DNA of 64,000 bases from NCBI GenBank assembly GCA_903889135.1, contig CAISWF010000170.1, forward strand, positions 1,638 through 65,637, read 5' to 3'. Numbering within the stretch: position 1 is the stretch's first letter; each line of letters opens with the position of its first letter. This DNA is from Candidatus Omnitrophota bacterium. GTDB lineage: Bacteria; Omnitrophota; Gorgyraeia; Pluralincolimonadales; Pluralincolimonadaceae. The notes below the pieces were generated by a model. It was not told the origin of the DNA, did no database searches, and saw nothing but the letters and a program-made list of their open reading frames with translations. The translations under genes and the position numbers were made by a program. This document shows, piece after piece, positions 9,748 to 62,541 of the stretch.

Positions 9748-9749
9748 TC

Positions 9750-9855: not shown

Positions 9856-10719
9856 TTATTTCATCGCTTCCTTGGTATTCTTTACGAACGGCTCAAGCAG
9901 GTTCATGAATTCCATCGGGAAGATATATTTCGTCGACGGGCTCTGTCCCAAAGCTTTCAGCGTCTCAAGGTACTGGAGCGAAAGCGTTTTCGCGTCGACG
10001 TTCTTGGCTACAGAGAATATCCTATCTAACGCCAGCGAAAAACCCTCAGCCCTTAGTATTGCCGCCTGCCTGTCGCCCTCAGCCTTCAATATTGCCGACT
10101 GCTTCTCGCCCTCGGCTACCGTTATGGCCGCGGCTTTTGTACCTTCCGCCTCGATGATCACGGCGCGACGGGTCCTTTCGGCGGACATCTGCCTGATCAT
10201 GGCGTCGGATACGTCCTTGGGCGGCAGGATCTCGCGGATCTCGACGGTAGTTACCTTAACGCCCCAGCGCTCGGTGACATCGTCAAGTTTTTGGCGGAGG
10301 ACCGTGTTTATCTGCTCGCGTTTTGAAAGGACTTCATCAAGCCCTAAGTCGCCGACTACGGCTCTCAGGGTGGTCGTAGCGATACCCTGCGACGCTGCCG
10401 CGAAATTGCCTACCTGTATGATGCTCTTGTCCGGGTCGATGACCTTCCAGTAGATAAGGAAATCTATCGATATCGGCGCGTTGTCTTTCGTGATGCACGT
10501 CTGTTGGGGTATCTCAAGGAACAACTCCCTTAAGTCCACGTTCAGAGCCTGGTCTAGTATAGGGATAAGGAATACTATTCCCGGGCCCCTCTGGCCGATA
10601 GAGCGGCCGAGGCGGAAGACTACAAGGCGCTTGTATTCCCTGACGATCCTTATCGAGTTCGAAAGTACTATTATCCCGACTACCAGTAAAAAGAATATGA
10701 TCATTCCGCTAATAGCCAT
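9856..10719 (-). CDS. SPFH/band-7 (stomatin-like) protein
   Basis: An N-terminal TM is followed by an SPFH domain (RIVREYKRLVVFRLGR...TKDNAPISIDFLIYWKVIDP) and a coiled-coil EAEG/KAEG region. Confidence 0.85.
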   Translation of the reverse strand: MAISGMIIFFLLVVGIIVLSNSIRIVREYKRLVVFRLGRSIGQRGPGIVFLIPILDQALNVDLRELFLEIPQQTCITKDNAPISIDFLIYWKVIDPDKSIIQVGNFAAASQGIATTTLRAVVGDLGLDEVLSKREQINTVLRQKLDDVTERWGVKVTTVEIREILPPKDVSDAMIRQMSAERTRRAVIIEAEGTKAAAITVAEGEKQSAILKAEGDRQAAILRAEGFSLALDRIFSVAKNVDAKTLSLQYLETLKALGQSPSTKYIFPMEFMNLLEPFVKNTKEAMK

Positions 10720-11439
10720 TTATTGCCTCGCTTTCTCAACCTTTACGATTAAACCGTCAACCGACTTCACCTTGATCTTTTCGCCGCTCTTTATCGTTCC
10801 TTCTAATGATTCCGCGTACCAATCCTCGCCCTTTATATGCACGATCCCTTTAGGGATAAGGTCTGTCTTTGCCTCGCCTATGTTATCGGTAAGGCTTTCA
10901 GTGCCTGAAAAGGCTTTGCGTTTCTGGGCCTTAAGGATGAGCGGAAGCACAAATGCCATCAGGCCGGTCGTGCTTATGACCATCGCCGCGATGAGCGCTT
11001 TCGAGAGTTTCGTGAACTGCGGATCGGCCTTAAAAAGTATAAGGGAGCCGATAGTCAACGCCAGAATACCGCAGACGGTCAGTATGCCGTGCGTCGGCGC
11101 TTTCACGTCCAGCACGAACAGCACAAAGCTGAGCAGCATCACGATCAGCCCCGTGTAGTTGACCGGCAGGGAACCCATCCCGATGAAGGCGAGCGCCAGG
11201 CTCGCTATGCCTATGACGCTGCCGATCGTTATGCCGGGCGTGGCTATCTCGAATATTATCCCGTAAAAGCCGATAATAAGGAGGAGATACACAAGATTCG
11301 GGTCCTTCAGGCCGTCCAAAAACCCCTGAAGGGTACTTGCACCCCGCAGGGTGGTCCCGCCCTCTACCTGGGCGAAGAGCGGCGCGGCGGAGATCGCCAG
11401 GGACAAAAATATCGCGGCTATTAACAGTAGTTTTTTCAT
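10720..11439 (-). CDS. NfeD-family membrane protein (stomatin operon partner)
   Basis: A signal peptide, multiple TM helices and a C-terminal OB-fold region (GIVHIKGEDWYAESLEGTIKSGEKIKVKSVDGLIVKVE) are present. It is directly adjacent and co-oriented with the SPFH gene. Confidence 0.8.
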   Translation of the reverse strand: MKKLLLIAAIFLSLAISAAPLFAQVEGGTTLRGASTLQGFLDGLKDPNLVYLLLIIGFYGIIFEIATPGITIGSVIGIASLALAFIGMGSLPVNYTGLIVMLLSFVLFVLDVKAPTHGILTVCGILALTIGSLILFKADPQFTKLSKALIAAMVISTTGLMAFVLPLILKAQKRKAFSGTESLTDNIGEAKTDLIPKGIVHIKGEDWYAESLEGTIKSGEKIKVKSVDGLIVKVEKARQ

Positions 11440-11584
11440 TTTATCCTCGCGGTTAGAGTAGGTTAAAATATACCACCCCCTTGCGGTGTTGTCAATCCTT
11501 CGCTTCGCTCAGGATTATATTGTATTGACGACGGGACTCTTAAGTGATATCATTTTATCCCTATCCGAGAGGAAAATTATGCGT

Positions 11585-11660
11585 GGGGCTGTAGCTCACC
11601 CGGGAGAGCGCCTGCATGGCATGCAGGAGGTAAGGGGTTCGATCCCCCTCAGCTCCACCA
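11585..11660 (+). tRNA. tRNA-Ala (anticodon GGC)
   Basis: GGGGCTGTAGCTCACCCGGGAGAGCGCCTGCATGGCATGCAGGAGGTAAGGGGTTCGATCCCCCTCAGCTCCACCA, with a G3:U70 wobble pair typical of tRNA-Ala. A possible TTGACG/TATCAT promoter lies around 11525-11553, and a T-run follows the gene. Confidence 0.85.
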
Positions 11661-11700
11661 TTTTTTTATAAAAAACAACCATCTAACCCAAGGCCGATCA

Positions 11701-12204
11701 ATGACCAAGGTCTGCTCCGGATGCAAAAGGGAATTCAGCGAACTCGAGGGCCTTCGGCTCTCCTTCGGGGTTTGCCCGGACTGCGGCGGTACGGTCGTGA
11801 CGAAAGAGGCGGATATATCCGGTTTGAAGTATGCGACCATATTCGTTGCCGATGGAAGGGATGAAGCCGAAGAGGTAAGGCGCAGGCTGGACATAAACAG
11901 GATATCATATGTCACCCGCGGCGATTGGGAGTCGCGGAAAATTTACATAGATTTTTTGGTGAGGGAAGACAAGGCCGAGGAAGCGGCAGCCCTTCTTAAG
12001 GATATCATAGATGCCGAAGCCGTCCCGGAGCCGCCCACTGCCGAAGACGGGCAAGAAGTGCCTCATGTTTCCCCGGTACCAAAAGCGGTCTTTGACCGGA
12101 GCCAGACAGAGGACAAGGGCTCGAATAATGTAGCGATCCTGATAATCTCTTTCGCCGTTTTCGCTCTCCTCGTTATATTATTGAACTATATGGTGAAAAA
12201 ATGA
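11701..12204 (+). CDS. Zinc-ribbon (CxxC...CxxC) protein with a C-terminal TM anchor; hypothetical
   Basis: CSGCKREF...CPDCGG is followed by the DUF2007-like segment ATIFVADGRDEAEEVRRRLDINRISY and a C-terminal hydrophobic helix. The stop overlaps the nfo start (ATGA). Confidence 0.45.
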   Translation: MTKVCSGCKREFSELEGLRLSFGVCPDCGGTVVTKEADISGLKYATIFVADGRDEAEEVRRRLDINRISYVTRGDWESRKIYIDFLVREDKAEEAAALLKDIIDAEAVPEPPTAEDGQEVPHVSPVPKAVFDRSQTEDKGSNNVAILIISFAVFALLVILLNYMVKK

Positions 12205-22516: not shown

Positions 22517-24067
22517 ATGTCAACACATAAATCTCTGGCGAAATCGGCGGGAGTGATAGGCCTCGGCATATCCGCGAGCCGCATCCTGGGTTTCATAAGG
22601 GATATAATAATTGCCGGCATGTTCGGGACCACGTCCATAGCTATCCAGGCGTTTACCGTAGCCTTCAGGATACCTAACCTGCTGCGCGACCTGGTAGGTG
22701 AAGGCGCGGCAAACGCGGCATTTGTGCCGGTCCTGACCGGTTATATCGCAACGAAGTCGAAAGAAGAGTTCTGGAAACTGGCGCGGGTGCTCCTCAATAC
22801 CATGACGGTCGTCCTGGCGGCCTTGACCTTGATCGGGGTAATGTTCGCTCCGGCCATAGTGGCGATAATATCGCCTGGTTTCATCAAAAATGCCGAGTTG
22901 TTCCAGATGACCGTTACCCTGACGCGGATGATGTTCCCGTACATATTCCTGATCGGCCTTACTGCCTATGCCACCGGCGTGCTGAATTCGATGAAGCTTT
23001 TCGGGGCGGCCTCTTTCAGCCAGCCTCTTTGGAATCTTGTATTTATCCTGGCGGCCGTATTCCTATGCCCGGTAATGAAAGTTCCCGTTATGGGGCTTGT
23101 CGTCGGCGTCCTGGCCGGCGGCCTGTTGCAATTATTGGTCCAGGTGCCGCAGCTGATGGGACGGGGGCTGGGGTTGCCGCGTTTCAACAGGTTCAGGCAT
23201 CCGGCCTCGGCCGAGATAGGGAAATTGCTGTTGCCGAGAGCGGTAGCTTCGAGCGTCTACCAGCTGAACGTGATGTTCGATACGGCGGTGGCGTCGCTGT
23301 CAGGGATCGTAGGTGACGGCGCGATCATGGCCATATATTATTCGAACAGGCTGTGGCAGCTGCCTCTGGCGATATTCAGCACCGCGATCTCACAGGCCAT
23401 GCTCCCGACTTTATCCGAACATGCCGCGCAGAAGGATACGGAGAAGTTCAAGGATACGCTTTCATTCTCGCTTCGCTCCGTATTTTTCATAACGATACCC
23501 GCGGCCGTCGGGCTTATAGTCCTCTCGGAGCCGATAGTGCGCACGTTGTTCCAAAGAGGCGCTTTCGACGCATATTCCACAAAAATAACATCATCTGCGC
23601 TATTGTATTTTTCGATAGGGCTTTGTTCATATGCCGGAGTCAAAGTCCTTACCTCGGCATTCTATTCGCTCAAGGACACGAGGACGCCGCTCAAGAACTC
23701 TTTTATGGCATTTTTACTGAATGCGGCGCTGAACCTTATCTTAATGTTCCCGATGAAGGTCGGAGGGCTCGCCCTTGCCACATCCATCGCGAGCATGTTC
23801 AACTTCTGTTCGCTTTTTTATCTTTTAAGGAAAAAGATAGGCCCGCTTGGGGGCCGCGCGATACTCGCTTCATTCGCGCGCGCCATGATACCCGGGATCA
23901 TAATGGCGATAGTCCTCGTCTGGTTTAATGCCGTCTTGCACTTCAGGCCGGTCCTTCACATGATAGTCGTCATCCTCGCCGGCATGGCCTCGTTCTTTAC
24001 CGCCTGCCTGATATTCGACGTAAAAGAATTCAAGGGATTCATGAAATGGATATTAAGGAGAAGCTGA
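22517..24067 (+). CDS. murJ: Lipid II flippase MurJ (MviN)
   Basis: The N-terminus LAKSAGVIGLGISASRILGFIRDIIIAGMFG is canonical for MurJ. The protein has 14 TM helices over 516 aa. Confidence 0.9.
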   Translation: MSTHKSLAKSAGVIGLGISASRILGFIRDIIIAGMFGTTSIAIQAFTVAFRIPNLLRDLVGEGAANAAFVPVLTGYIATKSKEEFWKLARVLLNTMTVVLAALTLIGVMFAPAIVAIISPGFIKNAELFQMTVTLTRMMFPYIFLIGLTAYATGVLNSMKLFGAASFSQPLWNLVFILAAVFLCPVMKVPVMGLVVGVLAGGLLQLLVQVPQLMGRGLGLPRFNRFRHPASAEIGKLLLPRAVASSVYQLNVMFDTAVASLSGIVGDGAIMAIYYSNRLWQLPLAIFSTAISQAMLPTLSEHAAQKDTEKFKDTLSFSLRSVFFITIPAAVGLIVLSEPIVRTLFQRGAFDAYSTKITSSALLYFSIGLCSYAGVKVLTSAFYSLKDTRTPLKNSFMAFLLNAALNLILMFPMKVGGLALATSIASMFNFCSLFYLLRKKIGPLGGRAILASFARAMIPGIIMAIVLVWFNAVLHFRPVLHMIVVILAGMASFFTACLIFDVKEFKGFMKWILRRS

Positions 24068-25356
24068 GGGCCCCGGTCCTGATGAAATTCAAAGAATTTC
24101 TCAGGGACGTACCGGACCAGCCCGGCGTATATATCTTTAAGGATGAAAGCGGGAAGGTGCTGTATGTAGGCAAGGCGTCGTCCTTGCGCAACAGGGTCCG
24201 CTCGTATTTCCAGAGGTCGAAAGACCACGGCCCGAGGATAGGCGCCCTCGTAAACAATATCCGCGATATGGATTGGATCCCGACGGCGACAGAGGCAGAT
24301 GCGCTCCTCTATGAATCGAACCTCATAAAAGAATACCAGCCGAAATACAACGTCGACCTCCGCGACAGCAAGACATACCCGCTTATCAAGATATCGATGT
24401 CCGAGGAATTTCCCCGCGTAATGATCGCGCGCGGGAAAAAGAGCGATGGTTCGCTCTACTTCGGGCCGTACACGGACGCGGGACTTTTGCGCGAAGCCGT
24501 AAAGGCGATCCGAAAGATATTCATGTTCCGGACATGCGCCTCCCTGCCGAAGAAGGCGTGCGTATATGACGACCTCGGGCTTTGCTCGGCGCCGTGCGAA
24601 GGAAAGATCTCGAGAGAAGAATACGCCGAAAGGATCAGGGAGGTCATCCTCTTTATTGAGGGGAAGAAGGGTGAGCTGATAAAGAAGCTGACGGAGAAGA
24701 TGAAGAGGTGCGCCGGCGAAGAAAAATTCGAGGAAGCAGCCGAAGCGCGCAACCAGATAGAGGCGCTTAGCACGGCAGTGCATAAAAGGTCGGGCATAGG
24801 GCCAGCCGGGCCCGGCGAATTGGCCGAAGTCCTGGGCCTTAAAAAAGTTCCTGCGCGCATCGAGGCATTCGACATATCGAATATCAAAGGGGAAGAAGCC
24901 TGCGGCTCGATGGTCACATTCAAAGACGGCAGGCCGGAGAAATCGAAATACAGGATGTTCAAGATACGAGAGGTCGAGGGCCAGGACGATTACGCGATGA
25001 TGCGCGAAGTGGTAAGGCGCAGGTATACGGGCTCCCTGAAAGACAAGTTGTCCAAGCCTGACCTGGTGATCATCGACGGGGGGAGGGGCCACCTCTCTGC
25101 CGCGGCGCAAGAGATACGGGCGGCCGGCTTGAAGGACGTCCCGGTCATCGGCATTGCAAAAGTCTTTGAGCACATATATACTTTAGGCAGGGATCTGCCG
25201 ATCGCGCTGCCGCCGTCATCAAAGGCGCTGCAATTGATACAGCGGATACGCGACGAATCGCACAGGTTCGCTATAAGGTACCATCACATATTAAGGAGAA
25301 AGGCGCTGATCGGTGAAAAAAGAACGAAAAAGGTCCGAAAGTGCAAATCCCGTTAG
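24046..25356 (+). CDS. uvrC: Excinuclease ABC subunit C (UvrC) lacking the C-terminal (HhH)2 domain
   Basis: A GIY-YIG domain (PGVYIFKDESGKVLYVGKASSLRNRVRSYF), a Cys-rich region, a UVR domain (KFEEAAEARNQIEAL) and an RNaseH-like endonuclease domain (IEAFDISNIKGEEACGSMV...DESHRFAIRYH) are present. The protein ends in the Lys/Arg-rich tail KRTKKVRKCKSR with no HhH motifs. Confidence 0.8.
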   Translation: MDIKEKLRAPVLMKFKEFLRDVPDQPGVYIFKDESGKVLYVGKASSLRNRVRSYFQRSKDHGPRIGALVNNIRDMDWIPTATEADALLYESNLIKEYQPKYNVDLRDSKTYPLIKISMSEEFPRVMIARGKKSDGSLYFGPYTDAGLLREAVKAIRKIFMFRTCASLPKKACVYDDLGLCSAPCEGKISREEYAERIREVILFIEGKKGELIKKLTEKMKRCAGEEKFEEAAEARNQIEALSTAVHKRSGIGPAGPGELAEVLGLKKVPARIEAFDISNIKGEEACGSMVTFKDGRPEKSKYRMFKIREVEGQDDYAMMREVVRRRYTGSLKDKLSKPDLVIIDGGRGHLSAAAQEIRAAGLKDVPVIGIAKVFEHIYTLGRDLPIALPPSSKALQLIQRIRDESHRFAIRYHHILRRKALIGEKRTKKVRKCKSR

Positions 25357-25660
25357 AAAAAGATTTTCTAACGGGGCGCAAAGGAATAAGCTGTTTGACG
25401 GGTGCACCGTATTCGAGATAAGCGTTTACGAGTGTATCATGAAGATACCCTCGGGCGAGACGCGCTCGTACGCGTGGGTCGCCGGAAAGATCGGCAAGCC
25501 CAAAGCCACCCGCGCCGTCGCGCAGGCCCTACACCGTAACCCCTGGCCGCTCATCATTCCCTGCCACCGCGTCGTCGCATCAGACGGCAATGTCGGCGGC
25601 TATGCCTACGGGATCTCGCTTAAAAAAATGCTGTTATCATTGGAAAAGAAGATAGATTAA
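25313..25660 (+). CDS. MGMT C-terminal-domain protein (methylated-DNA-protein-cysteine methyltransferase DNA-binding/active-site domain only)
   Basis: The active-site motif PCHRVV is present, and GETRSYAWVAGKIGKPKATRAVAQALHRNP matches the MGMT HTH. The GTG start at 25313 (AGGAGA RBS at 25294-25299) overlaps the last 44 nt of uvrC in another frame. Confidence 0.6.
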   Translation: MKKERKRSESANPVRKRFSNGAQRNKLFDGCTVFEISVYECIMKIPSGETRSYAWVAGKIGKPKATRAVAQALHRNPWPLIIPCHRVVASDGNVGGYAYGISLKKMLLSLEKKID

Positions 25661-49818: not shown

Positions 49819-50433
49819 ATGTCGCGCGGAAGGTTCATCACGATCGAGGGGCCGGAAGGGTCGGGAAAATCTACGCATTCACGCCTGCTTTGCCTCCATC
49901 TGAAAAAAAAAGGCTTTAAGGTATTGCATGCGCGTGAGCCCGGCAGCACTAAGATAGGCGAGGCGATCCGCAAGATCCTGCTCGACAAAAATAACAAAAG
50001 GATGTCCGGCGCGTGCGAACTTTTCCTATTTCTTGCGGCACGCGCGCAGGTCGTCGACGAGATAATAAGGCCTGCGCTGGCCAAGGGATATATAGTGGTC
50101 TGCGACAGGTTCCATGACGCGACGGTCGCGTATCAGGGTTACGGCGCCGGCCTCGACCTTAAATTGATAGATTCGATGGGAAAATTTGCGACAGGCGGGC
50201 TTAAGCCCGACCTTACGTTATTGCTCGACGTGGAGACCGGGGCAGGGTTGAAACGCGGGGGCATAAAGGACAGGATGGAGATAAAACCCGTCCTTTTCCA
50301 CAAAAGGGTCAGGAACGGTTACCTGAAGATAGCGAAAAAGGAACCGCGCCGGATAAAGGTGATCCGGACGACCGACGCGCCGGTCGTCGCGGTCCGGGAT
50401 AAAATAAGAAGAGCCGTATCGGATGTCATTTAA
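49819..50433 (+). CDS. tmk: Thymidylate kinase
   Basis: The P-loop is FITIEGPEGSGKST and the DRF motif is CDRFHDATVAYQGYG. Confidence 0.9.
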   Translation: MSRGRFITIEGPEGSGKSTHSRLLCLHLKKKGFKVLHAREPGSTKIGEAIRKILLDKNNKRMSGACELFLFLAARAQVVDEIIRPALAKGYIVVCDRFHDATVAYQGYGAGLDLKLIDSMGKFATGGLKPDLTLLLDVETGAGLKRGGIKDRMEIKPVLFHKRVRNGYLKIAKKEPRRIKVIRTTDAPVVAVRDKIRRAVSDVI

Positions 50434-51388
50434 TAAGGTCATAGGGCAGGAGCATGCCGCAGGTCTTTTAAAAAAAGCGATAGAGGAGAAACGCCTCGCG
50501 CACGCGTATCTCTTTATCGGGCCGGAAGGCGTTGGCAAGTCGCTTCTCGCGAAGGTCTTCGCCAAGGCGCTCAATTGCGAAAAGGGCGCCGCCGATCCGT
50601 GCGGGGAGTGTATCTCCTGCAAAAAGATAGAAGGCAATATCCATCCCGACGTCGTAATCCTCTCGCCGGAAGGGAAATCGTCGCAGATAGGCATAGACGC
50701 GATCCGCAAGATAGGCGCGACGATGTCGCTAAAACCTTATGAGGGGCGGACGAAGGTCTTCATGATCGACGGCGCGGATAAGATGACCGAGGAAGCCGCG
50801 AACTCGTTATTGAAGACCCTCGAGGAGCCGCCGAAGGACACGGTCCTCGTGCTGCTTGCCTCGAACATGTTCAAGCTGCAGCCGACGATAGTGTCGCGGT
50901 GCCAGAAGGTGCTCTTCCATCCTCTTGGCGAGCGCGCGATAATGAAAGAGCTCATAGAAAGATACGGGCTCGACGAGAAGAAGGCGGCCTGCGTATCGAG
51001 ATTTTCCGAAGGGCGGCTCGGCAGGGCGATAGAGGTCCTCGAGGGCGAGGCGCTGGCCAAGAGGAACAAGGTAGTAGACGAATTTTTGACGCCGAAACAG
51101 TTCGGCTATGAGGATACATGGTTGTACGGCGAGCCGCGCGAGAAGATAAACGAGACATTGAACGCGCTGGCCGTATATTTCAGGGACCTGCTGGTCTTCA
51201 GTCTCTCGAAAGACCAGGGCCTGCTCGTCAACCTCGACAGGGCCGCGGATATATCGCGCGATGCCGCCAGATATCCCGCAGAGAGGCTCGAGAGGATAAT
51301 CGAGATAATCGCTGACACGCAGGAGCAGATAAAGAGGAACGCCAACATTAAGATCGCGCTCGCCTGCATGCGGATTAACATAACTTAG
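50423..51388 (+). CDS. holB: DNA polymerase III delta-prime subunit
   Basis: The degenerate Walker A is AHAYLFIGPEGVGKS. The Zn module is CEKGAADPCGECISC, and SRCQ is present. Confidence 0.8.
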   Translation: MSFNKVIGQEHAAGLLKKAIEEKRLAHAYLFIGPEGVGKSLLAKVFAKALNCEKGAADPCGECISCKKIEGNIHPDVVILSPEGKSSQIGIDAIRKIGATMSLKPYEGRTKVFMIDGADKMTEEAANSLLKTLEEPPKDTVLVLLASNMFKLQPTIVSRCQKVLFHPLGERAIMKELIERYGLDEKKAACVSRFSEGRLGRAIEVLEGEALAKRNKVVDEFLTPKQFGYEDTWLYGEPREKINETLNALAVYFRDLLVFSLSKDQGLLVNLDRAADISRDAARYPAERLERIIEIIADTQEQIKRNANIKIALACMRINIT

Positions 51389-51398
51389 GGGATATAAA

Positions 51399-52216
51399 AT
51401 GTTCGAAGTCGTGCAGATCAGGTTAAGGGAAGGCGGCAAGACGTCGTATTTCGAGCTCGGGAACACGAAACCGAAGATCGGCGACGTCGTCATCGTCGAC
51501 GCGGACAGGGGAGTCGATTACGGGGAGGCGATATCCGGGGTGGAATCCATCTCGCAGATCACCGGGGAAGAGCCGCTTCGCAAGATATTAAGGATCGCCA
51601 CTGCCGGCGACCTCGACCAGATAAAAAAGAACCGTGAGAAGACGAAAGAGGCCTTCGTCACCTGCCAGAAGAAGATAATCGAGCACGGGCTTAAGATGAA
51701 GCTCATAGACGCCGAATACACGTTCGACAGGTCGAAGCTCCTCTTTTATTTCACGGCCGAGGGGCGCGTCGATTTCAGGGAACTCGTAAAAGACCTCGCG
51801 CGCATATTCAAGGCGCGCATTGAGCTTAAGCAGATAGGCGTGCGCGATGAGGCGCGGCTCCTGGGCGGGTTCGGCCCGTGCGGAAAGTGTCTCTGCTGCG
51901 CGACTTTCCTCAAGGATTTCGAGCCGGTCACGATAAAGATGGCCAAGGAACAGAACCTCCCGCTAAACCCCGCTAAGATCTCCGGCGTATGCGGCCGGTT
52001 GATGTGCTGCCTCGGATACGAGCATAAATTATACGTTGAATTGTTGAAGGGTTTGCCGAAGGAAGGCGAAAAAGTGAGCCTTGAAGGATGCTCGGGCAAG
52101 GTCGTCTCGGTGAACGCGCTCAAGCGCTCAATAACCGTCGATTGCGGCGAGGGGAAGTTCGTCGAGCTCGGCTGCAAATGCCCCAAGGGCTGCGAAATGC
52201 ACCATAACCAGAGAAA

Positions 52217-52220
<4 letters not shown>
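51399..52220 (+). CDS. ricT: PSP1 C-terminal domain protein (RicT/YaaT-like)
   Basis: The PSP1 domain and a Cys-rich C-terminus (CGKCLCCATFL...CGRLMCC) are present, and the gene lies between holB and metG as in Bacillus. Confidence 0.8.
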
Positions 52221-53775
<1,555 letters not shown>

Positions 53776-53779
<4 letters not shown>

Positions 53780-55179
53780 TGCGTCCCTTCGGCTTCGCTC
53801 AGGGTAAACTTGTCGATACCCATTGCCATCTGGATTTCCCGGAGTTCGATTCGGACAGGGAAGAGGTCATAAATAGGGCGAAAGCCGCCGGCATAGAAAA
53901 TATAATAAATGTCGCGAGCAGCTTCGACGGCTCAAAGAGGTCGGTCGCGCTCGCGAATAAATATGGTTGCGTTTACGCCTCAGTCGGCATCCATCCGCAC
54001 GACGCGAAGGAACTGGATGCGTCCTCGTTTTCCGCGATCAAAGACCTCGCCAAGGATAAAAAGGTAGTAGCTATAGGCGAAGTAGGCCTCGACTATTACA
54101 GGAACCTATCGCCTGCCGGGCTGCAGCAGGCGGCATTCAAGAAATTCCTCCACCTCGCAGAAGAGACTGGCCTGCCGCTCATAATCCACTGCCGCGAAGC
54201 GCGCGAGGACCTCCTGAAGATAATAAAAAAAGAGATCTCCGCCCCCGTAAAGGGGGTCGTCCACTGTTTTCCCCCCGATGAGGAGCTCCTTAACAGCGTT
54301 CTCGACCTCGGGATGTACGTCTCGTTCACAGGCAACCTCACTTTCAAAAACGCCGCAAAATCGCGCGAAATGGTAAAAGCCCTGGTCCCGATGGACAGGA
54401 TATTGGTCGAGACCGACGCGCCGTACCTTGCGCCGGAAGGGATGCGCGGCAAGAGGAACGAGCCGTCCTATATGGTAAAAGTAGTGGAGCAGATAGCGGA
54501 ATTGAAAGGGATCGCCCCGGAAGACGTGGCCAGAGCCACGACCGTTAACTGCGCGCGGCTTTTCGGGGTCGGCGCCGCGCCGGAATCGGCCGTTACGTAT
54601 AAAATAAGGGACTCCTTGTATATTAACCTCACCAACAGGTGCACCAGTGACTGCGAATTCTGCGTAACCAAGACGACGGATTTCGTGATGGGGCATAACC
54701 TGCGCCTTAAAGGCGAACCGTCGGCAAAAGAGATAATAGAGGAGATCGGCGACCCGTCCGTATACGACGAGATTGTATTCTGCGGATACGGCGAACCCAC
54801 TTTGCGGCTCGATTGCATGGTTGAGGTCGCGAAGGCCCTTAAGAAAAAAGGGGCCAAGATCCGCCTTACGACGAACGGCCACGGGAACCTGATAAATAAA
54901 AGGCGCATCGTCGACGACCTGGTCGGCCTTATAGACCGCGTGAGCGTGAGCCTCAACGCCCCGGACAAAGAGGTCTATGATAAGGTCTGCAGGCCGGCGT
55001 TCGGGCCGGGGACTTTCGGCGAGGTAAAGAAGTTCATCGCCGAGTGCAGGGAGAAACTGCCTGAGGTCGAGGTTACCTGCGTCGATTGCGAAGGCGTAGA
55101 TATGAAGGAATGTGAGAGGGTCGCGGCCGGGGAATTAAAGGTCAAGTTCAGGCCGAGGAGGCTCAATGTCGTGGGATAA
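53776..55179 (+). CDS. TatD-family metal-dependent hydrolase fused to a small C-terminal radical SAM domain
   Basis: Residues 1 to about 265 carry the TatD motifs LVDTHCHLD, GEVGLDYY, IIHCREA and ETDAPYL. About 200 aa of the C-terminus carry a CxxxCxxC radical SAM cluster motif (NRCTSDCEFC) and GYGEPTL. Confidence 0.75.
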
Positions 55180-56233
55180 AATAAGGAAATTCGCGGGCGA
55201 GAACCGGATCTATCTCCTCATGCTCGCTTTCATAATAGCGACCGAGATATTCCTGGTCGTGTCGCCTATGTCCGAGAAGAAGGAGAAACTGACCGAGAAG
55301 AAGAAATCGCACATGACGCTTTCGCCTCAAGAGGTCCTCGCGCAGGAGGATAGGATAAAGGAACTGCTCGCGCACAACAGCCTGCTCGGGTTCACGGTCA
55401 CGGCCAGCACATTCTTAAGTGCCGTCGCGCTTTTGGCCGGCCTTATCATCGGCATGAACTGCATCGCCCGCAAACTTAACGGCCGTGACATCATGGCCGC
55501 TTACGGCTCCCCGCCGGAGGCGCCTTGGAAGTTCATCGATGTCTTGAGGGTGATAATCGCGTTCTATTTCTTCGTTTATACGCTCCAATGGATAGAGGCC
55601 GATATATTGAACCTGATGAAGGTTAAGAACCCCAACGAGGTGCTTTTTGACGTGCTTAACGCGACCCTGATGGACGTCATCGGCCTCGTTATAGTCCTGT
55701 ATTTCGCGGTAAAAAAATTCAAGAGTGGCCTGGCCGGGCTCGGGCTCACCGTTAAGAACATAGCGAGGAACATGAGGATCGCCATCGGCGGATATCTTAC
55801 GATCATCCCGGTCCTGGCTATCATAATGATCCTGGTATTCATCGGCATCAGGGTATTCAGTTATGAACCGCCGGAGACGAAGGCGCTCGAGATACTCTAC
55901 GAGGCGAAGGGTACGAAGCTCCTCCTCATACTTACGGCGCTAGTTACTATCATAGGGCCGATCACCGAGGAGTTATTCTTCAGGGGTTTCGCGTATCCGG
56001 TATTCAGGAAGAAGATGGGGGTGAGGAACGCGATATTGCTAGTCTCGTTCATCTTCGCGATGCTTCACATGAATATCGTCTCGTTCTTTCCGATACTCGC
56101 GCTCGGTATCCTGCTGGCGTATCTTTACGAGAAGACCGGCTCTATAGTCCCATCGATAGCGGTGCATATAATCCATAACTCGGCCGTGATATTTTTCGTG
56201 TTCCTTTATAAACTGATAGCGCTCCCTAAATAG
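55166..56233 (+). CDS. CPBP-family (CAAX/Abi) intramembrane metalloprotease
   Basis: The three CPBP motifs EELFFRG, FIFAMLHMN and HIIHNS are present. The protein is polytopic, and its start overlaps the TatD-rSAM stop. Confidence 0.75.
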   Translation: MSWDKIRKFAGENRIYLLMLAFIIATEIFLVVSPMSEKKEKLTEKKKSHMTLSPQEVLAQEDRIKELLAHNSLLGFTVTASTFLSAVALLAGLIIGMNCIARKLNGRDIMAAYGSPPEAPWKFIDVLRVIIAFYFFVYTLQWIEADILNLMKVKNPNEVLFDVLNATLMDVIGLVIVLYFAVKKFKSGLAGLGLTVKNIARNMRIAIGGYLTIIPVLAIIMILVFIGIRVFSYEPPETKALEILYEAKGTKLLLILTALVTIIGPITEELFFRGFAYPVFRKKMGVRNAILLVSFIFAMLHMNIVSFFPILALGILLAYLYEKTGSIVPSIAVHIIHNSAVIFFVFLYKLIALPK

Positions 56234-57343
56234 ATGATGAACCCAAAGGTCTCGATAGTAAGATCGGATTCGTACGATCCCGGCAAAGTCTATGCCGCCG
56301 TCAAAAAAGCGGTGGATTTGCTCGGCGGCATCTCTTCGTTCGTAGGGTTCGGCGAGACTATACTCTTAAAGCCCAACGTACTTTCAGCGAAGCCCCCGGA
56401 ATCAGGCGTCGACACGCATCCTGAGATGATACGCGCGGTCGCGAGGCTCGTAAGGGAAGCCGGGGCAAAAGTGATAGTCGGGGATTCCCCCGGGGGGGTA
56501 TATTTCAAGGACGCGGGCTCGACATACGAGGCCGCGGGGATAAAGAAGGTTTGCGATGAGGAGAAGATAGAGCTCGTCGATTTTGACAGGGCAAAAAACG
56601 TCCGCGGGATGCCGATAACGGAATGGGCTTTCGCCGTCGACGGGATAATATCCCTGCCGAAGATGAAGACGCACGGCCTCACGACGATAACCGGGGCTGT
56701 CAAGAATTCTTACGGGCTCGCGATCGGCCTTTACAAGGCGCAGTGCCATTTCAAGGCGCCGCGGCCGGAAGCATTCTGTAGATATGTAGTAGACGTGTTC
56801 GAAACGGCCAAACCGCGGCTCGCTATAATGGACGGCATAACGGCGATGGAAGGCGACGGGCCCGCCGCCGGAAATTTAAGGGATGCAGGGCTTATCATAG
56901 CCGGCAGCGACTGCGTGGCGATCGATTCGGTGTTTGCGAAGCTTATAGGCATCGAACCGCTTAAAGTCGAGATAACGGCCGAGGCATACAGGAGGGGACT
57001 GGGCGAGGCGGATATCTCAAAAATAGAGATCGTCGGTGAGACCATAGACGCGTCCAGGCAGAAGAATTTTAAACTTCCCAAGACGTCTGTCTTAACGAAG
57101 TTGCCCGAACCGCTCCTAAAGCTTATAATGAAGGGGATAAAGTTCCTGCCGAGGATAGATGATAATTTATGCAAGGGCTGCCTCGTCTGTGAGAAGAGCT
57201 GCCCGGCCGCGGCGATAGAGATAGATAGGGTGCGATCGCGCATCGACTATTCGAAGTGCGTAAGGTGTTTTTGCTGCATGGAACTTTGTCCGCACAAGGC
57301 GATACATATCAAACGTAGCCTGCTTGCCAGGCTTATAGGATAA
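56234..57343 (+). CDS. DUF362 domain protein with a C-terminal 2x[4Fe-4S] ferredoxin domain
   Basis: DUF362 is indicated by the N-terminus (ILLKPNVLS...IVGDSPGG). The C-terminus carries CKGCLVCEKSCP and CVRCFCCMELCP. Confidence 0.7.
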   Translation: MMNPKVSIVRSDSYDPGKVYAAVKKAVDLLGGISSFVGFGETILLKPNVLSAKPPESGVDTHPEMIRAVARLVREAGAKVIVGDSPGGVYFKDAGSTYEAAGIKKVCDEEKIELVDFDRAKNVRGMPITEWAFAVDGIISLPKMKTHGLTTITGAVKNSYGLAIGLYKAQCHFKAPRPEAFCRYVVDVFETAKPRLAIMDGITAMEGDGPAAGNLRDAGLIIAGSDCVAIDSVFAKLIGIEPLKVEITAEAYRRGLGEADISKIEIVGETIDASRQKNFKLPKTSVLTKLPEPLLKLIMKGIKFLPRIDDNLCKGCLVCEKSCPAAAIEIDRVRSRIDYSKCVRCFCCMELCPHKAIHIKRSLLARLIG

Positions 57344-57347: not shown

Positions 57348-58373
57348 ATGGCTATCCAGACGATCAGATGGGACAAGGGCGCGATAAAGATAATAGACCA
57401 GACCCTGCTCCCGAATAAGCTCGTATACCTGAAGTTCCGCGACGTAAAGGATTTCTGGCACGCGATAAAAAAATTGCAGGTGCGCGGAGCGCCGGCCCTG
57501 GGCGTGGCCGCCGCCTACGGGGCTTACCTGGGGATCCAGAGATCGAGGGCCAAAGATTATAACGGATTTATCCGCGAACTGGACCGTGTCATAAAATTCA
57601 TCGGCTCGGCGAGGCCGACCGCGGTGAATCTTTTCTGGGGCCTCGACAGGATCCGCGCCGCCGCCGTGAAAAATAAGAAAAAACCTGTCCCGGAGATAAA
57701 GAAAGCGCTGCTTTCCGAGGCGCACAAAATTTACGAAGAGGACAGGGCGATATGCAGGAAGATGGCCGGGTACGGTGCGCGGCTCATTAAAAACGGCGAT
57801 GTCATATTGACGCACTGCAACGCCGGAGCGCTCGCGACGGCCGATTACGGCACCGCGCTCGGCGTAATTTACATGGCTAAGGAACAGGGCAAGCGCGTAA
57901 AGGTATATGCCGATGAGACACGGCCTCTTTTGCAGGGCGCTCGCCTTACCACCTGGGAGTTGATGCGCGAAGGTATAGATGTGACGCTCATCTGCGATAA
58001 TATGGCCGCCCATGTCATGAGCCTGGGCAAGGTGACGAAAGTCATCGTAGGCGCGGACAGGATAACGCGTAACGGCGACGCGGCGAACAAGATAGGCACT
58101 TACGGCGTCGCGGTCCTGGCGAAATACCACAAGATACCTTTTTATGTAGTCGCGCCGGTCTCGACGATAGATTTCAACCTGCCATACGGCAGGTTGATCC
58201 CGATCGAAGAGAGGCATGGAGACGAGATCACGACTATCCGCGGGAATCTCCTCGCCCCGAAAGGGGTAAAGACGTATTGCCCGGCTTTCGACGTAACGCC
58301 GGCGGCGCTAATCACCGCGATAGTCACGGAAAAAGGGATTTTTAAACCTGATGAAATTAAAAAAATTAGGTGA
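57348..58373 (+). CDS. mtnA: S-methyl-5-thioribose-1-phosphate isomerase (eIF-2B alpha/beta/delta-like)
   Basis: IIDQTLLP, RGAPALGVAAAYG and TRPLLQGARLTTWEL are present. Confidence 0.8.
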   Translation: MAIQTIRWDKGAIKIIDQTLLPNKLVYLKFRDVKDFWHAIKKLQVRGAPALGVAAAYGAYLGIQRSRAKDYNGFIRELDRVIKFIGSARPTAVNLFWGLDRIRAAAVKNKKKPVPEIKKALLSEAHKIYEEDRAICRKMAGYGARLIKNGDVILTHCNAGALATADYGTALGVIYMAKEQGKRVKVYADETRPLLQGARLTTWELMREGIDVTLICDNMAAHVMSLGKVTKVIVGADRITRNGDAANKIGTYGVAVLAKYHKIPFYVVAPVSTIDFNLPYGRLIPIEERHGDEITTIRGNLLAPKGVKTYCPAFDVTPAALITAIVTEKGIFKPDEIKKIR

Positions 58374-59265
58374 GACAGGGCTCATAGAGCGGCTCGCGAG
58401 GAATTTTAAGGCGGGCAAAGATATCGTCCGGGGCATCGGCGACGATTGCGCCGTGATACGCATATCGAAGAAAAAATACCTGCTCGTCACGATCGACATG
58501 CTCCTTGAGGATGTCGATTTTAAGTTAAAGGACGCGACGGCTTTCCAGATCGGCTGGAAGTCGCTCGCCTGCGGGTTAAGCGATATCGCCTCAATGGGCG
58601 GCACTGCGAAATACGCGGTCGCCTCTTTAGGGCTCCCGAAAAAGCTGAGCGTCGAATTTGTAGATGAGATATACCGCGGGATAAAGGCTCTTGCCAAAAG
58701 ATTCGACGTCGAGATAGTCGGCGGCGATACGAATTCTTCCCGCAAACTCGTCATAGATGTCGCTGTCCTCGGGTTCGTAGAGCCAGATAAAGCCGCGTTC
58801 AGGAGCGGCGCGAGGCCCGGCGATATAATTTGCGTAACAGGCGCGCTCGGCGGCTCATATAAAAGCAAGAGGCATCTTGTTTTTACGCCGCGCCTTAAAG
58901 AAGCCCGGTACCTGGTAAATAATTTCAAGATAACCTCGATGATAGATATTTCTGACGGGCTTTCGACCGAATTAAACCATATCGCGAAGGCGAGCGGGGT
59001 AGGCGCCTGTGTATACGAGGAACTGATACCGGTCGCAAAGGGCGCCAGGGGCGTGAACGCGGCGTTGAATGAAGGCGAGGATTTTGAGCTGTTATTCACG
59101 ATGCCGCTGGACGAGGCCCGCAGGCTCGCCCGGAAGAACATGGAATTGAACGGCGTGAGAATATCTCAGATCGGCGAGATACTCGATAAAAAGATCGGCG
59201 TGAAGATAATAGCTCCTAACGGAACGACGAAAGAACTGAAGCCAAAAGGATTTTCTCATTTTTAA
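58351..59265 (+). CDS. thiL: Thiamine-monophosphate kinase
   Basis: The AIR-synthase-related fold shows GIGDDCAVI and the DxxDGL region (MIDISDGLSTEL). Confidence 0.8.
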   Translation: MKLKKLGETGLIERLARNFKAGKDIVRGIGDDCAVIRISKKKYLLVTIDMLLEDVDFKLKDATAFQIGWKSLACGLSDIASMGGTAKYAVASLGLPKKLSVEFVDEIYRGIKALAKRFDVEIVGGDTNSSRKLVIDVAVLGFVEPDKAAFRSGARPGDIICVTGALGGSYKSKRHLVFTPRLKEARYLVNNFKITSMIDISDGLSTELNHIAKASGVGACVYEELIPVAKGARGVNAALNEGEDFELLFTMPLDEARRLARKNMELNGVRISQIGEILDKKIGVKIIAPNGTTKELKPKGFSHF

Positions 59266-59685
59266 ATGACATTCACGACAGCGAACGCTGAAGAGACGAT
59301 AAAATTAGGGGAGAAGATAGCCAGGCGGTTAAAGCCCGGCGACCTCGTCGCGCTCTCAGGCGAACTGGGCGCGGGCAAGACCACCCTCGTCAAGGGTATA
59401 GCCAAGGGCCTCGGCGTAAAGAATTACAGGTACGTCAACAGCCCGTCATTCGTCCTCGTCAAAGAATATAAAGGGAAGATCCCGCTCTTCCATTTCGATA
59501 TCTACCGGCTCAACAATTTAAAGGACATCGAGGATATCGGCTATGAGGATTACCTCGCACGCGACGGCGTTGTCGTCATCGAATGGTCGGGTAAGATGGC
59601 GCGCATACTGCCGAAGAAGCGTTTAAATGTCGCTTTGAAGATAAAAAGTCCCGGCAAGCGGACGATCGCCATAAAGGAATCATGA
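59266..59685 (+). CDS. tsaE: tRNA t6A biosynthesis protein TsaE (YjeE)
   Basis: The P-loop GELGAGKTTLVKG, HFDIYRL and the length of 139 aa fit TsaE. Confidence 0.85.
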   Translation: MTFTTANAEETIKLGEKIARRLKPGDLVALSGELGAGKTTLVKGIAKGLGVKNYRYVNSPSFVLVKEYKGKIPLFHFDIYRLNNLKDIEDIGYEDYLARDGVVVIEWSGKMARILPKKRLNVALKIKSPGKRTIAIKES

Positions 59686-60368
59686 AAATACTTGCGTTAG
59701 ACACCACATCAAAATATCTCTCTCTCGCGATAACCGAGGGCGATAAGGTCATAGCGACTTTCCACAGAGTGATGGACCAGCGGCAGTGCGAACAGCTTTT
59801 GCCGCAGATAGACAAACTCCTGAAAAAGGCCAATCTGAAGTTAAAAAATATAGACTGCATTGCGTTCTCAAAAGGTCCGGGGTCGCTGACCGCACTACGC
59901 ATCGGCGCGGCGACGGTGAAAGGGTTTGCGCTCGGGGCAAAGATAAAAATTGTCGGGATACCGACGCTCGACGCGCTCGCGTATAATATAAAAGAAGAAG
60001 GTAAGCTGATAGTTCCGGTCATCGACGCGCGCCGCGGCAACGTTTACGCATCGGCATATTCCTTCAAAAAAGGGAAGCTGCGCCGGATCTTAAAATACTC
60101 GGTCGCTCCTGTCGCCGAATTGCTGAAGTCGGTCAAGGGCGACGCAGTCTTTTTGGGCGACGGGCTGGTAGCTTACAGGAAAACGATCGAGGATAATTTT
60201 AAGTTTAATGCCGGGTTCGCCCCGGAGAAGCTCTGGTATCCCAGCGCGGCGACAGTCGCACGTCTCGGTCATGTGCTGGCAAAAAACAAAAAATTTGAAG
60301 AGGTAGATAAATTTGTCCCGATGTATTTATATCCGAAAGATGTCCAAGTAAGGAACCTTATAAAATGA
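59682..60368 (+). CDS. tsaB: tRNA t6A biosynthesis protein TsaB (YeaZ)
   Basis: MKILALDTTSKYLSLAI and GPGSLTALRIG are present. The gene overlaps the tsaE stop and the alr start. Confidence 0.8.
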   Translation: MKILALDTTSKYLSLAITEGDKVIATFHRVMDQRQCEQLLPQIDKLLKKANLKLKNIDCIAFSKGPGSLTALRIGAATVKGFALGAKIKIVGIPTLDALAYNIKEEGKLIVPVIDARRGNVYASAYSFKKGKLRRILKYSVAPVAELLKSVKGDAVFLGDGLVAYRKTIEDNFKFNAGFAPEKLWYPSAATVARLGHVLAKNKKFEEVDKFVPMYLYPKDVQVRNLIK

Positions 60369-61591
60369 GCCCTGTAAACGCGCGCAAGATAGTTCCTAGC
60401 CCTGCAAAAGGCAGGACAAGCCCTGCGAAAAGCAGGACTAGCCCTGCAAAAGGCAGGACAAGCCCTGCGAAAAGCAGGACAAGCAGGCCGACATGGACAG
60501 AGATAGACCTCGACGCCATCGCCCATAATTATCACGCGATAAAGGCGCGCCTCACGAAAGACACGAATATCCTCGCCGTCGTGAAGGCGAACGCGTACGG
60601 TTACGGGATGATAGAGGTCGCGCGCCGGCTGCAAAAAGAGAGGGTCCCGTACTTGGGGGTAGCGTGTGTCGACGAAGGCGTTATACTCCGACGCTCAGGG
60701 GTACGCACCCCGATACTCGTCCTTTCGTCGGTCCTTCCGGAAGAAGCGGAGTCCGCGCTCTATTATGACCTGACGCTTACCGTATGCGATAAGATCCTCG
60801 CCGCGGCCATAGACAAAGCGGCGCGCAGCCTCAGGAAACACGCGCTCATCCATGTGAAAGTCGATACAGGCATGGGCAGGCTGGGTGTGTGGCATGAAGA
60901 GGCCGGCCGCCTTATTAAAGACCTCATGAGTTTCAAGAATATAGCTATCGAAGGGATATTTACGCATTTCGCGAGCGCGGACGAGGAGGATGTCCGCTAT
61001 ACCGCCGCCCAGATAGAGAATTTTAAGCGGCTCGCCACCGAGATGGAGATAAGCGGCATCGAGATACAGTATGTGCACGCTGCGAACTCTGCCGGCGCTA
61101 TGCTGTATAAAGATTCCCACTTCAATATGGTGCGGCCGGGGCTTATGCTTTACGGCCTCTACCCGAACAAGCATCTGGTGAGAGCCGTGAAGTTAAAACC
61201 GGCCCTTGCGCTTAAGACGAGGATTATATATCTCAAGAAGACGCCGCCGGGCAGGTTTATCAGCTATGGCAGGACGCACATGACGGACAGGGAGACGGTT
61301 ATCGCCACGCTCCCGATAGGGTATGCCGACGGGCTCAACCGGCACCTCTCGAACAAGGGGGAAGTGCTCGTGCGCGGATGGCGCGCGCCGATAGTCGGAC
61401 GCATCTGCATGGACCACACGATGGTAGACGTCGGAGGGATAAAAGGCGCGAAGGTCGGCGATGAGGTCACAATTATCGGGTCCCAAAAAGGCGAGACTAT
61501 CACCGTAGAGGATATAGCCGAGCTTCTCGATACCATCCCTTACGAAGTAGTCTGCTGGATATCAGCCAGGGTGCCGCGCGTTTATAAATAA
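60365..61591 (+). CDS. alr: Alanine racemase with an unusual N-terminal basic SPAK(G/S)RT-repeat extension
   Basis: The PLP motif AVVKANAYGYG, YGL(Y)P and the C-terminal beta domain are present. No in-frame ATG, GTG or TTG occurs between the repeat and the catalytic domain, so the repeats appear to be translated. Confidence 0.85.
   Translation: MSPVNARKIVPSPAKGRTSPAKSRTSPAKGRTSPAKSRTSRPTWTEIDLDAIAHNYHAIKARLTKDTNILAVVKANAYGYGMIEVARRLQKERVPYLGVACVDEGVILRRSGVRTPILVLSSVLPEEAESALYYDLTLTVCDKILAAAIDKAARSLRKHALIHVKVDTGMGRLGVWHEEAGRLIKDLMSFKNIAIEGIFTHFASADEEDVRYTAAQIENFKRLATEMEISGIEIQYVHAANSAGAMLYKDSHFNMVRPGLMLYGLYPNKHLVRAVKLKPALALKTRIIYLKKTPPGRFISYGRTHMTDRETVIATLPIGYADGLNRHLSNKGEVLVRGWRAPIVGRICMDHTMVDVGGIKGAKVGDEVTIIGSQKGETITVEDIAELLDTIPYEVVCWISARVPRVYK
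60398..60481 (+). repeat. Tandem in-frame repeat, 4 x 21 nt (two alternating variants, giving 2 x 42 nt), encoding SPAKGRT/SPAKSRT
   Basis: The units agccctgcaaaaggcaggaca and agccctgcgaaaagcaggac(t/a) are read directly from the sequence. Confidence 0.9.
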
Positions 61592-61614: not shown

Positions 61615-62541
61615 ATGGAAAATACCGCAGTTTCCGATCTTATCCCCGAGGTGCGTATCCGACGGCAATCCGTCTATTATTATATAGCCATGATCTTATG
61701 GCCGGCCTATCTTTTCTTGCTTCCAGCGGTATTTATGCGCATCGGCTGGTGGGTGATCTTTTATTTGATCTTCCCCGGGCTGTACCTTTTTACCTGGGTG
61801 GGGTACCTTATGCATGAAAGCTGGCATAAATATGTCCCGAACGTGGATAGTCATTTTTTCTATAATATCTTTGCGCTCATGATCCTGTCGGATCCTCAGC
61901 TTTACCATATGAGCCATGGATCGCATCATGCGCAAGTGAATACGTATGACGACGCGGAATTCCATCCGCTGGGAGAGGTCAGATCAAGGGGCATGCGGAT
62001 AATATATCACTGGCTGGAAGTCGTGTTCGGGGTCGCTTTCTTGTTCGCGGCGGCCAGCCTGACGGTACCCCGGGACCCGCGTTTTGCCAAAAGATACCGG
62101 TTTTGGAAACTACCCTTATCGGTTTTATCGTGGGTGATCTTTTTTGTCGGTCTTGGATATCTGTCCCATCTTGTTTTTGGCGCCGCCTTGCGGCAAGTGT
62201 TCCTGTTATATTTCCTGAGTTTCTGGCTCGGTTCATTTTTCCTGCATCAATCGCAGCTTATAGAGCACGGGAACCTGATCGTTGAAGGGACATTTCAACA
62301 GCGCAATGTCCGGACGCGGAACTTGAAGCCGGCCGGGATGGCGGAAAAGGTTTTCCTGTTCTTGACGCACGGCGATTCGCGCGAACATGTCCTGCATCAT
62401 ACGTTGACGGCCGTCTATACCCGTCCGTTCCCGGGGACGGTTCCTTTGCCGGAAGGGACGGTATCGATCACTATGGGTGATTATTGCCAGCTTTTATGGC
62501 GCATGTTGGTCGGGAAAGTAGATAAAGAGCAATTTCGGTGA
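61615..62541 (+). CDS. Fatty acid desaturase-family integral membrane protein
   Basis: Three His boxes (HESWH, HGSHH, HVLHH) are spaced as in membrane desaturases/hydroxylases, with 4 TM helices. Confidence 0.6.
   Translation: MENTAVSDLIPEVRIRRQSVYYYIAMILWPAYLFLLPAVFMRIGWWVIFYLIFPGLYLFTWVGYLMHESWHKYVPNVDSHFFYNIFALMILSDPQLYHMSHGSHHAQVNTYDDAEFHPLGEVRSRGMRIIYHWLEVVFGVAFLFAAASLTVPRDPRFAKRYRFWKLPLSVLSWVIFFVGLGYLSHLVFGAALRQVFLLYFLSFWLGSFFLHQSQLIEHGNLIVEGTFQQRNVRTRNLKPAGMAEKVFLFLTHGDSREHVLHHTLTAVYTRPFPGTVPLPEGTVSITMGDYCQLLWRMLVGKVDKEQFR

Follow-up and report, generated by a model that had tools for sequence, protein, structure and literature searches.

A TatD nuclease fused to a radical SAM domain in an Omnitrophota core-gene array, and its relation to the neighbouring CPBP and DUF362 genes

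Introduction

The Group II class of TatD nucleases, marked by an HxH motif (PMC10085689), includes Escherichia coli YcfH, a Mg-dependent 3'-exonuclease on single-stranded DNA and an apurinic/apyrimidinic (AP) endonuclease on double-stranded DNA (PMC10085689). An E. coli triple knockout of tatD, yjjV and ycfH is sensitive to H2O2 (PMC10085689). A family of radical S-adenosylmethionine (SAM) proteins linked to TatD genes is catalogued as TIGR04038, "TatD family nuclease-associated radical SAM protein". We found no paper on TIGR04038 in the literature, and nothing functional on TatD combined with radical SAM. Here we describe a gene that joins the two, on 64,000 nucleotides of DNA from a Candidatus Omnitrophota bacterium (assembly GCA_903889135.1, contig CAISWF010000170.1, positions 1,638 to 65,637; hereafter the window). 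We also describe its relation to the two genes that follow it, which encode a CPBP intramembrane protease and a DUF362 protein. The family and its fused architecture are already known. We consider it probable that the fusion is a housekeeping TatD nuclease of the YcfH/YabD type with a TIGR04038 domain added, and that the CPBP and DUF362 genes are Omnitrophota-specific insertions and not its functional partners.

Results

The fusion gene and its flanking genes occupy the following positions in the window.

53776-55179, + strand: TatD-radical SAM (rSAM) fusion open reading frame (ORF), 467 amino acids (aa)
53776-54582, + strand: TatD domain of the fusion (residues 1-269), Group II / YcfH-YabD type, HCH at residues 16-18
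54583-55179, + strand: rSAM domain of the fusion (residues 270-467), minimal partial-barrel core with no auxiliary-cluster extension
55166-56233, + strand: CPBP ORF, 355 aa, Rce1-like glutamic intramembrane protease (PF02517), Omnitrophota-specific orthogroup
56234-57343, + strand: DUF362 ORF, 369 aa, with a C-terminal 2x[4Fe-4S] ferredoxin (PF04015 and Fer4 families)
49819-53779, + strand: upstream tmk, holB, ricT and metG, a conserved housekeeping array (Pfam/NCBIfam)
57348-61591, + strand: downstream mtnA, thiL, tsaE, tsaB and alr, functionally unrelated core genes, equally tight and syntenic

An earlier note on this DNA had placed the three ORFs in this same stretch (53776-57343), and the junctions measure as it claimed. 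The stop of the fusion overlaps the CPBP start by 14 nucleotides (nt), and the CPBP stop is followed by the ATG of DUF362 with a 0-nt gap. Upstream, metG and the fusion share a 4-nt ATGA overlap, so that the series from metG through the fusion, CPBP and DUF362 to mtnA reads -4, -14, 0 and +4 nt. All 11 junctions between the 12 genes from tmk to alr fall between -23 and +10 nt. Tight coupling is not peculiar to the fusion, CPBP and DUF362. Scans of the gene block for promoters and terminators were uninformative, with counts within shuffle expectation and no convincing internal terminator. CPBP and DUF362 are probably co-transcribed with the core-gene array.

Domains were called with Pfam and NCBIfam profile hidden Markov models (HMMs) against curated cutoffs. 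The domain matches are not due to chance, because their E-values reach 1e-89. The TatD half of the fusion matches PF01026 (TatD_DNase) with 299.5 bits over residues 13-264, and TIGR00010 (YchF/TatD) with 284 bits against a cutoff of 206. Its N-terminal HxH motif reads HCH (residues 16-18), and the metal ligands H16, H18, E102, H138, H163 and D214 are invariant in 38 of 38 aligned Omnitrophota fusions. Solved TatD structures match this half by Foldseek with TMt values of 0.89-0.96, in the TatD TIM-barrel fold. Staphylococcus aureus TatD (6l25/2gzx) is 42-43% identical to it with TMt 0.95-0.96, E. coli YcfH (1yix) is 39% identical and E. coli TatD 31%. Judged by HMM, HxH motif, ligands and fold, the TatD half belongs to Group II (YcfH/YjjV/TATDN3 type) and is predicted to be a nuclease.

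The earlier note had read the remaining residues of this gene as an extra C-terminal domain of roughly 200 aa with a CxxxCxxC motif. PF04055 (Radical_SAM) indeed matches with 68.5 bits over residues 283-445, and TIGR04038 with 246.5 bits against a cutoff of 129.7 over residues 273-463, which covers model positions 2-191 of 192. The rSAM core, a partial (beta/alpha)6 TIM barrel, is complete. CxxxCxxC reads CTSDCEFC at residues 289-296 (C289/C293/C296), and the GGE-like motif reads GYGE (G337-E340), within the SAM-binding motif GYGEPT. The cluster cysteines and GYGEPT are invariant in the 38 Omnitrophota fusions. The cluster cysteines and G337-Y-G-E340 are also invariant in a separate alignment of 37 sequences spanning phyla. 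The two domains are intact, and because the metal ligands, cluster cysteines and SAM motif are invariant, both are predicted to be catalytically competent. An AlphaFold model of the whole fusion reached a predicted local distance difference test score (pLDDT) of 92.8 and a predicted template modelling score (pTM) of 0.86. Together with a linker of only about eight residues between the domains, this pTM suggests a fixed domain arrangement in the model. The best structural match of the rSAM domain was PflA, and the fold is a minimal open barrel.

Neither a SPASM/twitch domain nor a RiPP recognition element (RRE; RiPP, ribosomally synthesised and post-translationally modified peptide) was found in the fusion, whose chain stops about 30 residues past the rSAM core. 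SPASM-family HMMs match the rSAM core only (about residues 275-431), far under their cutoffs, for example with 24.7 against 650. We considered an auxiliary Fe-S or SPASM cluster held by C336, C405 and C446, which are invariant in the 38 Omnitrophota fusions. This candidate was rejected for want of family-wide conservation: in the cross-phylum alignment the only invariant cysteines are the three of CxxxCxxC, and C336 is kept in over 90% of sequences, whereas C405 and C446 are not. In Omnitrophota, C336, C405 and C446 may represent a lineage-specific disulfide, a metal site or phylogenetic inertia.

The pairing of TatD and this rSAM domain is widespread. An exhaustive HMMER search with the rSAM domain over 50%-identity cluster representatives returned 1767 representatives at E<=1e-3 and 237 at E<=1e-30. 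The best 150 comprised 82 of fusion size, 45 stand-alone proteins of about 200 aa, and fragments. Ten representatives of odd length proved to be nine truncated or extended TatD fusions and one rSAM domain only (P0236), and no fusion partner other than TatD was seen among these ten. The 120 best homolog clusters of the fusion (54-100% identity) are all TatD-rSAM fusions, of 454-489 aa. A relative is encoded by at least 595 stretches of a species-representative genome collection, and we surveyed the neighbourhoods of the best 80 loci, about 65 of them outside Omnitrophota (loci here and below are numbered with the prefix L). The pairing is seen in these 80 loci, which come from Omnitrophota, Nitrospirota, Nitrospinota, Desulfuromonadales/Geobacter, Brocadiales, Elusimicrobia, Bacteroidota, Zixibacteria, Firestonebacteria, Terriglobia and other groups.

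As one fused gene the pair occurs in Omnitrophota, Nitrospirota, Nitrospinota, Desulfuromonadales, Brocadiales, Bacteroidota and other phyla. In two Elusimicrobia loci (L049, L060) tatD and the rSAM gene are separate and abutting. They are also separate in the cultured Dictyoglomus thermophilum (CP001146.1, L095:4243-6512), where a 253-aa tatD shares 4 nt with a 200-aa rSAM gene. TatD and rSAM are thus partners, fused or adjacent, robustly across phyla and mostly in anaerobic species, and the partnership is already catalogued. The D. thermophilum locus further holds a second radical SAM gene (301 aa) 3 nt after the TatD-associated one and, upstream, genes for a TadA-like deaminase, CutA1 and a HAD hydrolase. 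For the stand-alone proteins of Clostridia and Dictyoglomus, NCBI already uses the name "TatD family nuclease-associated radical SAM protein". The Omnitrophota fusions (P0003, P0004, P0017 and similar) are named "YchF/TatD family DNA exonuclease" or "TatD family hydrolase". Annotation in Omnitrophota therefore carries the TatD half alone and hides the rSAM half, though this half scores above the TIGR04038 cutoff.

We next looked at where the fusion gene sits. In most loci of all phyla metG lies directly upstream, usually in the order tmk-holB-ricT-metG-fusion; the E. coli order is tmk-holB-ycfH, without metG. Outside Omnitrophota, the next gene downstream is convergent in 17 of 65 loci. The 43 same-strand downstream neighbours there belong to scattered Pfam families, including KsgA (5), DUF423 (4), Pyr_redox (3), YabE-like 3D/G5 (3), GNAT (3) and PurH (2), and no conserved downstream partner was found among them. 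In Bacillus, KsgA and YabE-like genes come after metS-yabD, which matches the slot of the fusion elsewhere, and yabD is not known to carry an rSAM domain there. Considering that it occupies the usual slot after tmk-holB-ricT-metG, the fusion is best seen as the lineage's regular housekeeping nuclease of the YcfH/YabD type that has gained a domain, and it does not belong to any special island.

Both neighbouring proteins match the families named in the earlier note. The CPBP protein matches PF02517 with 79.8 bits against a cutoff of 22.4. It has about eight hydrophobic segments and retains three intact catalytic motifs: EELFFR268 (EExxxR), FAMLH297 (FxxxH) and HIIHN334 (HxxxN). The DUF362 protein matches PF04015 with 177.6 bits against 24 and carries two CxxCxxCxxxCP motifs, at 313 and 342, in its 2x[4Fe-4S] ferredoxin tail. 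Its best NCBIfam match is Npun_F2552_fam (167.5 against a cutoff of 500), and sequence searches of the PDB matched the ferredoxin tail only. All named homologs of either protein come from Omnitrophota, and the two orthogroups appear, from these searches, to be confined to this phylum.

Neither gene accompanies the fusion elsewhere. In the roughly 65 loci outside Omnitrophota, a phmmer search that used the proteins of the window as queries found no CPBP or DUF362 homolog up to 8 kb from the fusion. Neither family is among the 25 Pfam families listed (with at least two members) for the 43 same-strand downstream genes. Within Omnitrophota, we counted how often neighbouring genes are adjacent in 15 loci, which were picked via the fusion alone.

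metG to fusion: 11/15
fusion to CPBP: 12/15
CPBP to DUF362: 5/11
ricT to metG: 12/12
mtnA to thiL: 8/9
thiL to tsaE: 9/9
tsaE to tsaB: 8/8
tsaB to alr: 8/8

The full order metG-fusion-CPBP-DUF362-mtnA-thiL-tsaE-tsaB-alr recurs down to about 55% identity of the fusion. Other arrangements occur as well. The order fusion-CPBP-mtnA, with DUF362 absent, is found in L008, L025, L034, L041, L051, L090 and L096, and L008 lacks DUF362 although its rSAM domain is 79% identical to that of the window. In L040 the order is fusion-CPBP-thiL, and in L031 the fusion is followed directly by mtnA. L066 (Candidatus Omnitrophus magneticus) has neither CPBP nor DUF362, and the ORF in the slot in L003 is DUF362 by Pfam. 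In L006 and L007 six unrelated genes follow the fusion, and DUF362 still overlaps mtnA.

In the lineage of L006 and L007, the CPBP slot (7653-11832) holds four genes without a Pfam match (168, 384, 95 and 46 aa) along with genes for a treble-clef zinc-finger protein and a major facilitator superfamily (MFS) transporter. The 384-aa and 168-aa genes of L006 were considered as divergent CPBPs and set aside, as Pfam gives them no match. A 70-aa ferredoxin gene stands right ahead of DUF362-mtnA in L007, and a class-V aminotransferase gene lies between metG and the fusion in this lineage. Four further loci (L009, L025, L034, L040) are labelled "uncultured Planctomycetia bacterium", yet carry an Omnitrophota-type block with CPBP and rSAM domains of up to 72% identity to that of the window. 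Their source metagenome-assembled genomes are probably mislabelled taxonomically.

Seven Omnitrophota loci, none of which has DUF362, carry an ogt-type gene for a methylated-DNA-protein-cysteine methyltransferase (about 100-115 aa, TIGR00589 with 86-106 bits, active site PCHRV) that separates metG from the fusion:

L025:6788-7216
L034:1991-2302
L041:6869-7258
L051:6777-7205
L066:1763-2065
L090:3160-3465
L096:247-543

This neighbour is a weak sign of a DNA-repair association of the fusion. The window has its own ogt-type homolog at 25313-25660, 28 kb from the fusion, which overlaps the end of a 436-aa gene (24046-25356). The N-terminus of the 436-aa product looks UvrC/GIY-YIG-like by eye, with no family search behind this.

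Elsewhere in the 64-kb window, nearly all large ORFs lie on the + strand and have core functions. They include genes for an AP_endonuc_2-family protein, LeuRS, PpiC, ComEC, a peptide-chain release factor, SecA, McsB-ClpC and CysRS. Two tRNAs (Leu-CAA and Ala-GGC) are present, and no other Rfam family reached threshold in the window. Upstream pairs of ORFs of about 342 and 806 aa, considered as possible repeats, proved to be unrelated housekeeping pairs. A fatty-acid desaturase-like gene (PF00487) follows alr at 61615-62541. The alr ORF contains, near its 5' end, a tandem repeat (60398-60484; 21 nt x 4.1 with 87% matches, or 42 nt x 2.1) that encodes SPAKGRT/SPAKSRT ahead of the Ala_racemase domain. 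This repeat could give the product a genuine low-complexity stretch at its N-terminus; alternatively, it could lie upstream of alr, whose true start would then be further downstream.

Discussion

The most likely role of the fusion would be the processing of nucleic-acid ends or lesions by a nuclease and a radical enzyme together. A PflA-like minimal barrel appears to be rigidly joined to a nuclease here, and a single shared nucleic-acid substrate seems most plausible. Tentatively, we suggest a specific mechanism in which a lesion or blocked end undergoes radical conversion and is then removed by the nuclease. The rSAM domain would share its nucleic-acid substrate with the TatD domain, which would serve as a two-metal 3'-exonuclease/AP-endonuclease. 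The rSAM [4Fe-4S] cluster would cleave SAM reductively to give a 5'-deoxyadenosyl radical, through which a nucleotide or 3' end that is blocked or damaged would be converted. The TatD nuclease would then excise or incise the converted nucleotide or end. Within this scheme, we infer that the substrate is a nucleic acid and that the radical step comes before the nuclease step.

Several observations weigh against the view of the fusion as a housekeeping nuclease that works on nucleic acid and has no tie to its neighbours. The physiological role of YcfH itself is unsettled, and its AP-endonuclease activity in vitro is modest (PMC10085689). The rSAM domain is not basic, with a mean isoelectric point (pI) of 7.3, a value that is uninformative as a sign of nucleic-acid binding. 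Having metG and KsgA as neighbours could speak for RNA, not DNA, as the substrate. On the side of the neighbours, the trio of fusion, CPBP and DUF362 is intact in L088 and L093, where metG upstream has been replaced, and in L091, where mtnA downstream has been replaced. The CPBP orthologs that we examined (19 loci, down to 33% identity) all lie directly after the fusion, and the CPBP start overlaps the fusion stop by 14 nt. CPBP and DUF362 could on these grounds be dedicated accessory factors of the fusion enzyme confined to one phylum, a suggestion that we regard as distinctly improbable.

The RNA context bears on a rival role in translation, in which the TatD domain would act on tRNA, rRNA or aminoacyl-tRNA and RNA modification or repair would fall to the rSAM domain. 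DTD3, a D-aminoacyl-tRNA deacylase of the TatD family, offers a model for such a role. We find this role unlikely. The linkage to metG belongs to the TatD slot and says nothing specific on the rSAM domain, and E. coli ycfH follows tmk-holB without metG. In Bacillus the gene after metS is a yabD that is not known to have an rSAM domain. RNA-modifying rSAM enzymes score below PflA, NifB, BlsE and viperin in comparison with the rSAM domain. Moreover, it is DNA on which YcfH has been shown to act (PMC10085689).

The earlier note had proposed that the fusion, CPBP and DUF362 might form a module for redox and processing. In such a module, the rSAM cluster would be supplied with electrons by the 2x[4Fe-4S] protein DUF362, and a component would be anchored or processed at the membrane by CPBP. 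The start overlap and the 0-nt gap are real, and the persistence of the trio under rearrangement of its flanks and the constant position of the CPBP orthologs speak for it. Radical SAM enzymes also need a low-potential reductant. We nevertheless judge the module improbable. Neither gene lies beside the fusion in the roughly 65 loci surveyed outside Omnitrophota, so that the conservation of CPBP and DUF362 with the fusion fails there, and it largely fails within the phylum. DUF362 is absent from six of 11 informative Omnitrophota loci, L008 included, and in L006 it goes with mtnA and not with the fusion. CPBP is absent from L006, L031 and L066. The genes thiL, tsaE, tsaB and alr are at least as syntenic as the trio, and all 12 genes are equally tight. 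Because unrelated pairs are as syntenic and every junction is tight, synteny and close spacing are uninformative here on shared function. The trio is not more cohesive than its background, and on present evidence the three-gene module is not a real unit.

Small-molecule chemistry would instead have the rSAM domain transform a nucleotide or metabolite, as viperin, BlsE, MoaA and QueE do, with TatD hydrolysing the product or a by-product. This we consider very unlikely. The TatD half is a canonical YcfH-type domain with all ligands and 39-43% identity to solved TatD DNases, and no biosynthetic genes are co-localised with the fusion in any phylum surveyed. Substrate-binding extensions of the viperin or MoaA type are lacking, as the domain ends after the core. 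Peptide maturation, with an rSAM maturase and CPBP as leader protease, is effectively refuted: as the earlier note had argued against a classical RiPP locus, a precursor gene would find no room between genes whose junctions are -4, -14, 0 and +4 nt, conservation of the extra cysteines is not family-wide, SPASM/twitch and RRE domains are absent, and the fusion partner is a nuclease.

Returning to the nuclease with an added TIGR04038 domain, the fusion described here is an ordinary member of a curated and widespread family, and the window itself matters little. The family is a worthwhile target for enzymology, as its rSAM domain is joined to, or abuts, a conserved nuclease in hundreds of anaerobic species. 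It is rather doubtful, though conceivable, that the universal YcfH/YabD nuclease and the minimal rSAM domain that it has taken up in many anaerobic lineages jointly carry out radical-initiated repair or processing of nucleic-acid lesions or blocked 3' ends. If true, this would be a second class of radical SAM nucleic-acid repair enzyme after spore photoproduct lyase. Solving the function of TIGR04038 could clarify what TatD nucleases, whose cellular role is unsettled, do in the cell, and might bring to light a new radical-based transaction on nucleic acids.

Comparison with known systems

The DUF362-ferredoxin protein belongs to a family without a characterised member, which we found in the literature only as an outgroup in work on LarA. 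PF04015 is placed in Pfam clan CL0471 together with the LarA N-terminal domain DUF2088 (PMC11770544). The CPBP protein shares PF02517 and the catalytic motifs with known CPBP/Rce1-like proteases (MroQ, the sortase-like MrtX and the bacteriocin-immunity Abi proteins). It falls under every NCBIfam cutoff for the named CPBP subfamilies, including ABC_perm_CPBP (89 against 435), MrtS (47 against 130) and MroQ (38 against 270). Its orthogroup is specific to Omnitrophota and extends the N-terminus by about 250 aa.

Among radical enzymes, PflA (3c8f) acts on a macromolecule. Its 17% identity to the rSAM domain marks a likeness in fold, not in family. A glycyl-radical enzyme, the partner of PflA, is absent at the fusion locus, and the match to the NrdG2 activase HMM reaches 22.7 where the cutoff is 131. 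Spore photoproduct lyase (SPL), the known radical SAM enzyme of DNA repair, has about 340 aa with its own DNA-binding elements, is 11% identical to the rSAM domain and serves as an analogy only; the SPL HMM does not appear among the 25 NCBIfam matches listed for the fusion.

The TatD half has its closest counterparts in E. coli YcfH, Bacillus subtilis YabD, S. aureus SAV0491/MW0446 and Thermotoga maritima TM0667, with which it has the HxH motif, the ligands and 39-43% identity in common. The genomic slot after tmk-holB(-ricT-metG) is also the same. These nucleases are single-domain proteins of about 255-265 aa, whereas the fusion adds the rSAM domain of about 200 aa through its short linker. 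Of all known systems TIGR04038 is matched most fully: the fusion has the full model, CxxxCxxC, GxGE and the pairing with TatD, and differs from the family in nothing of substance.

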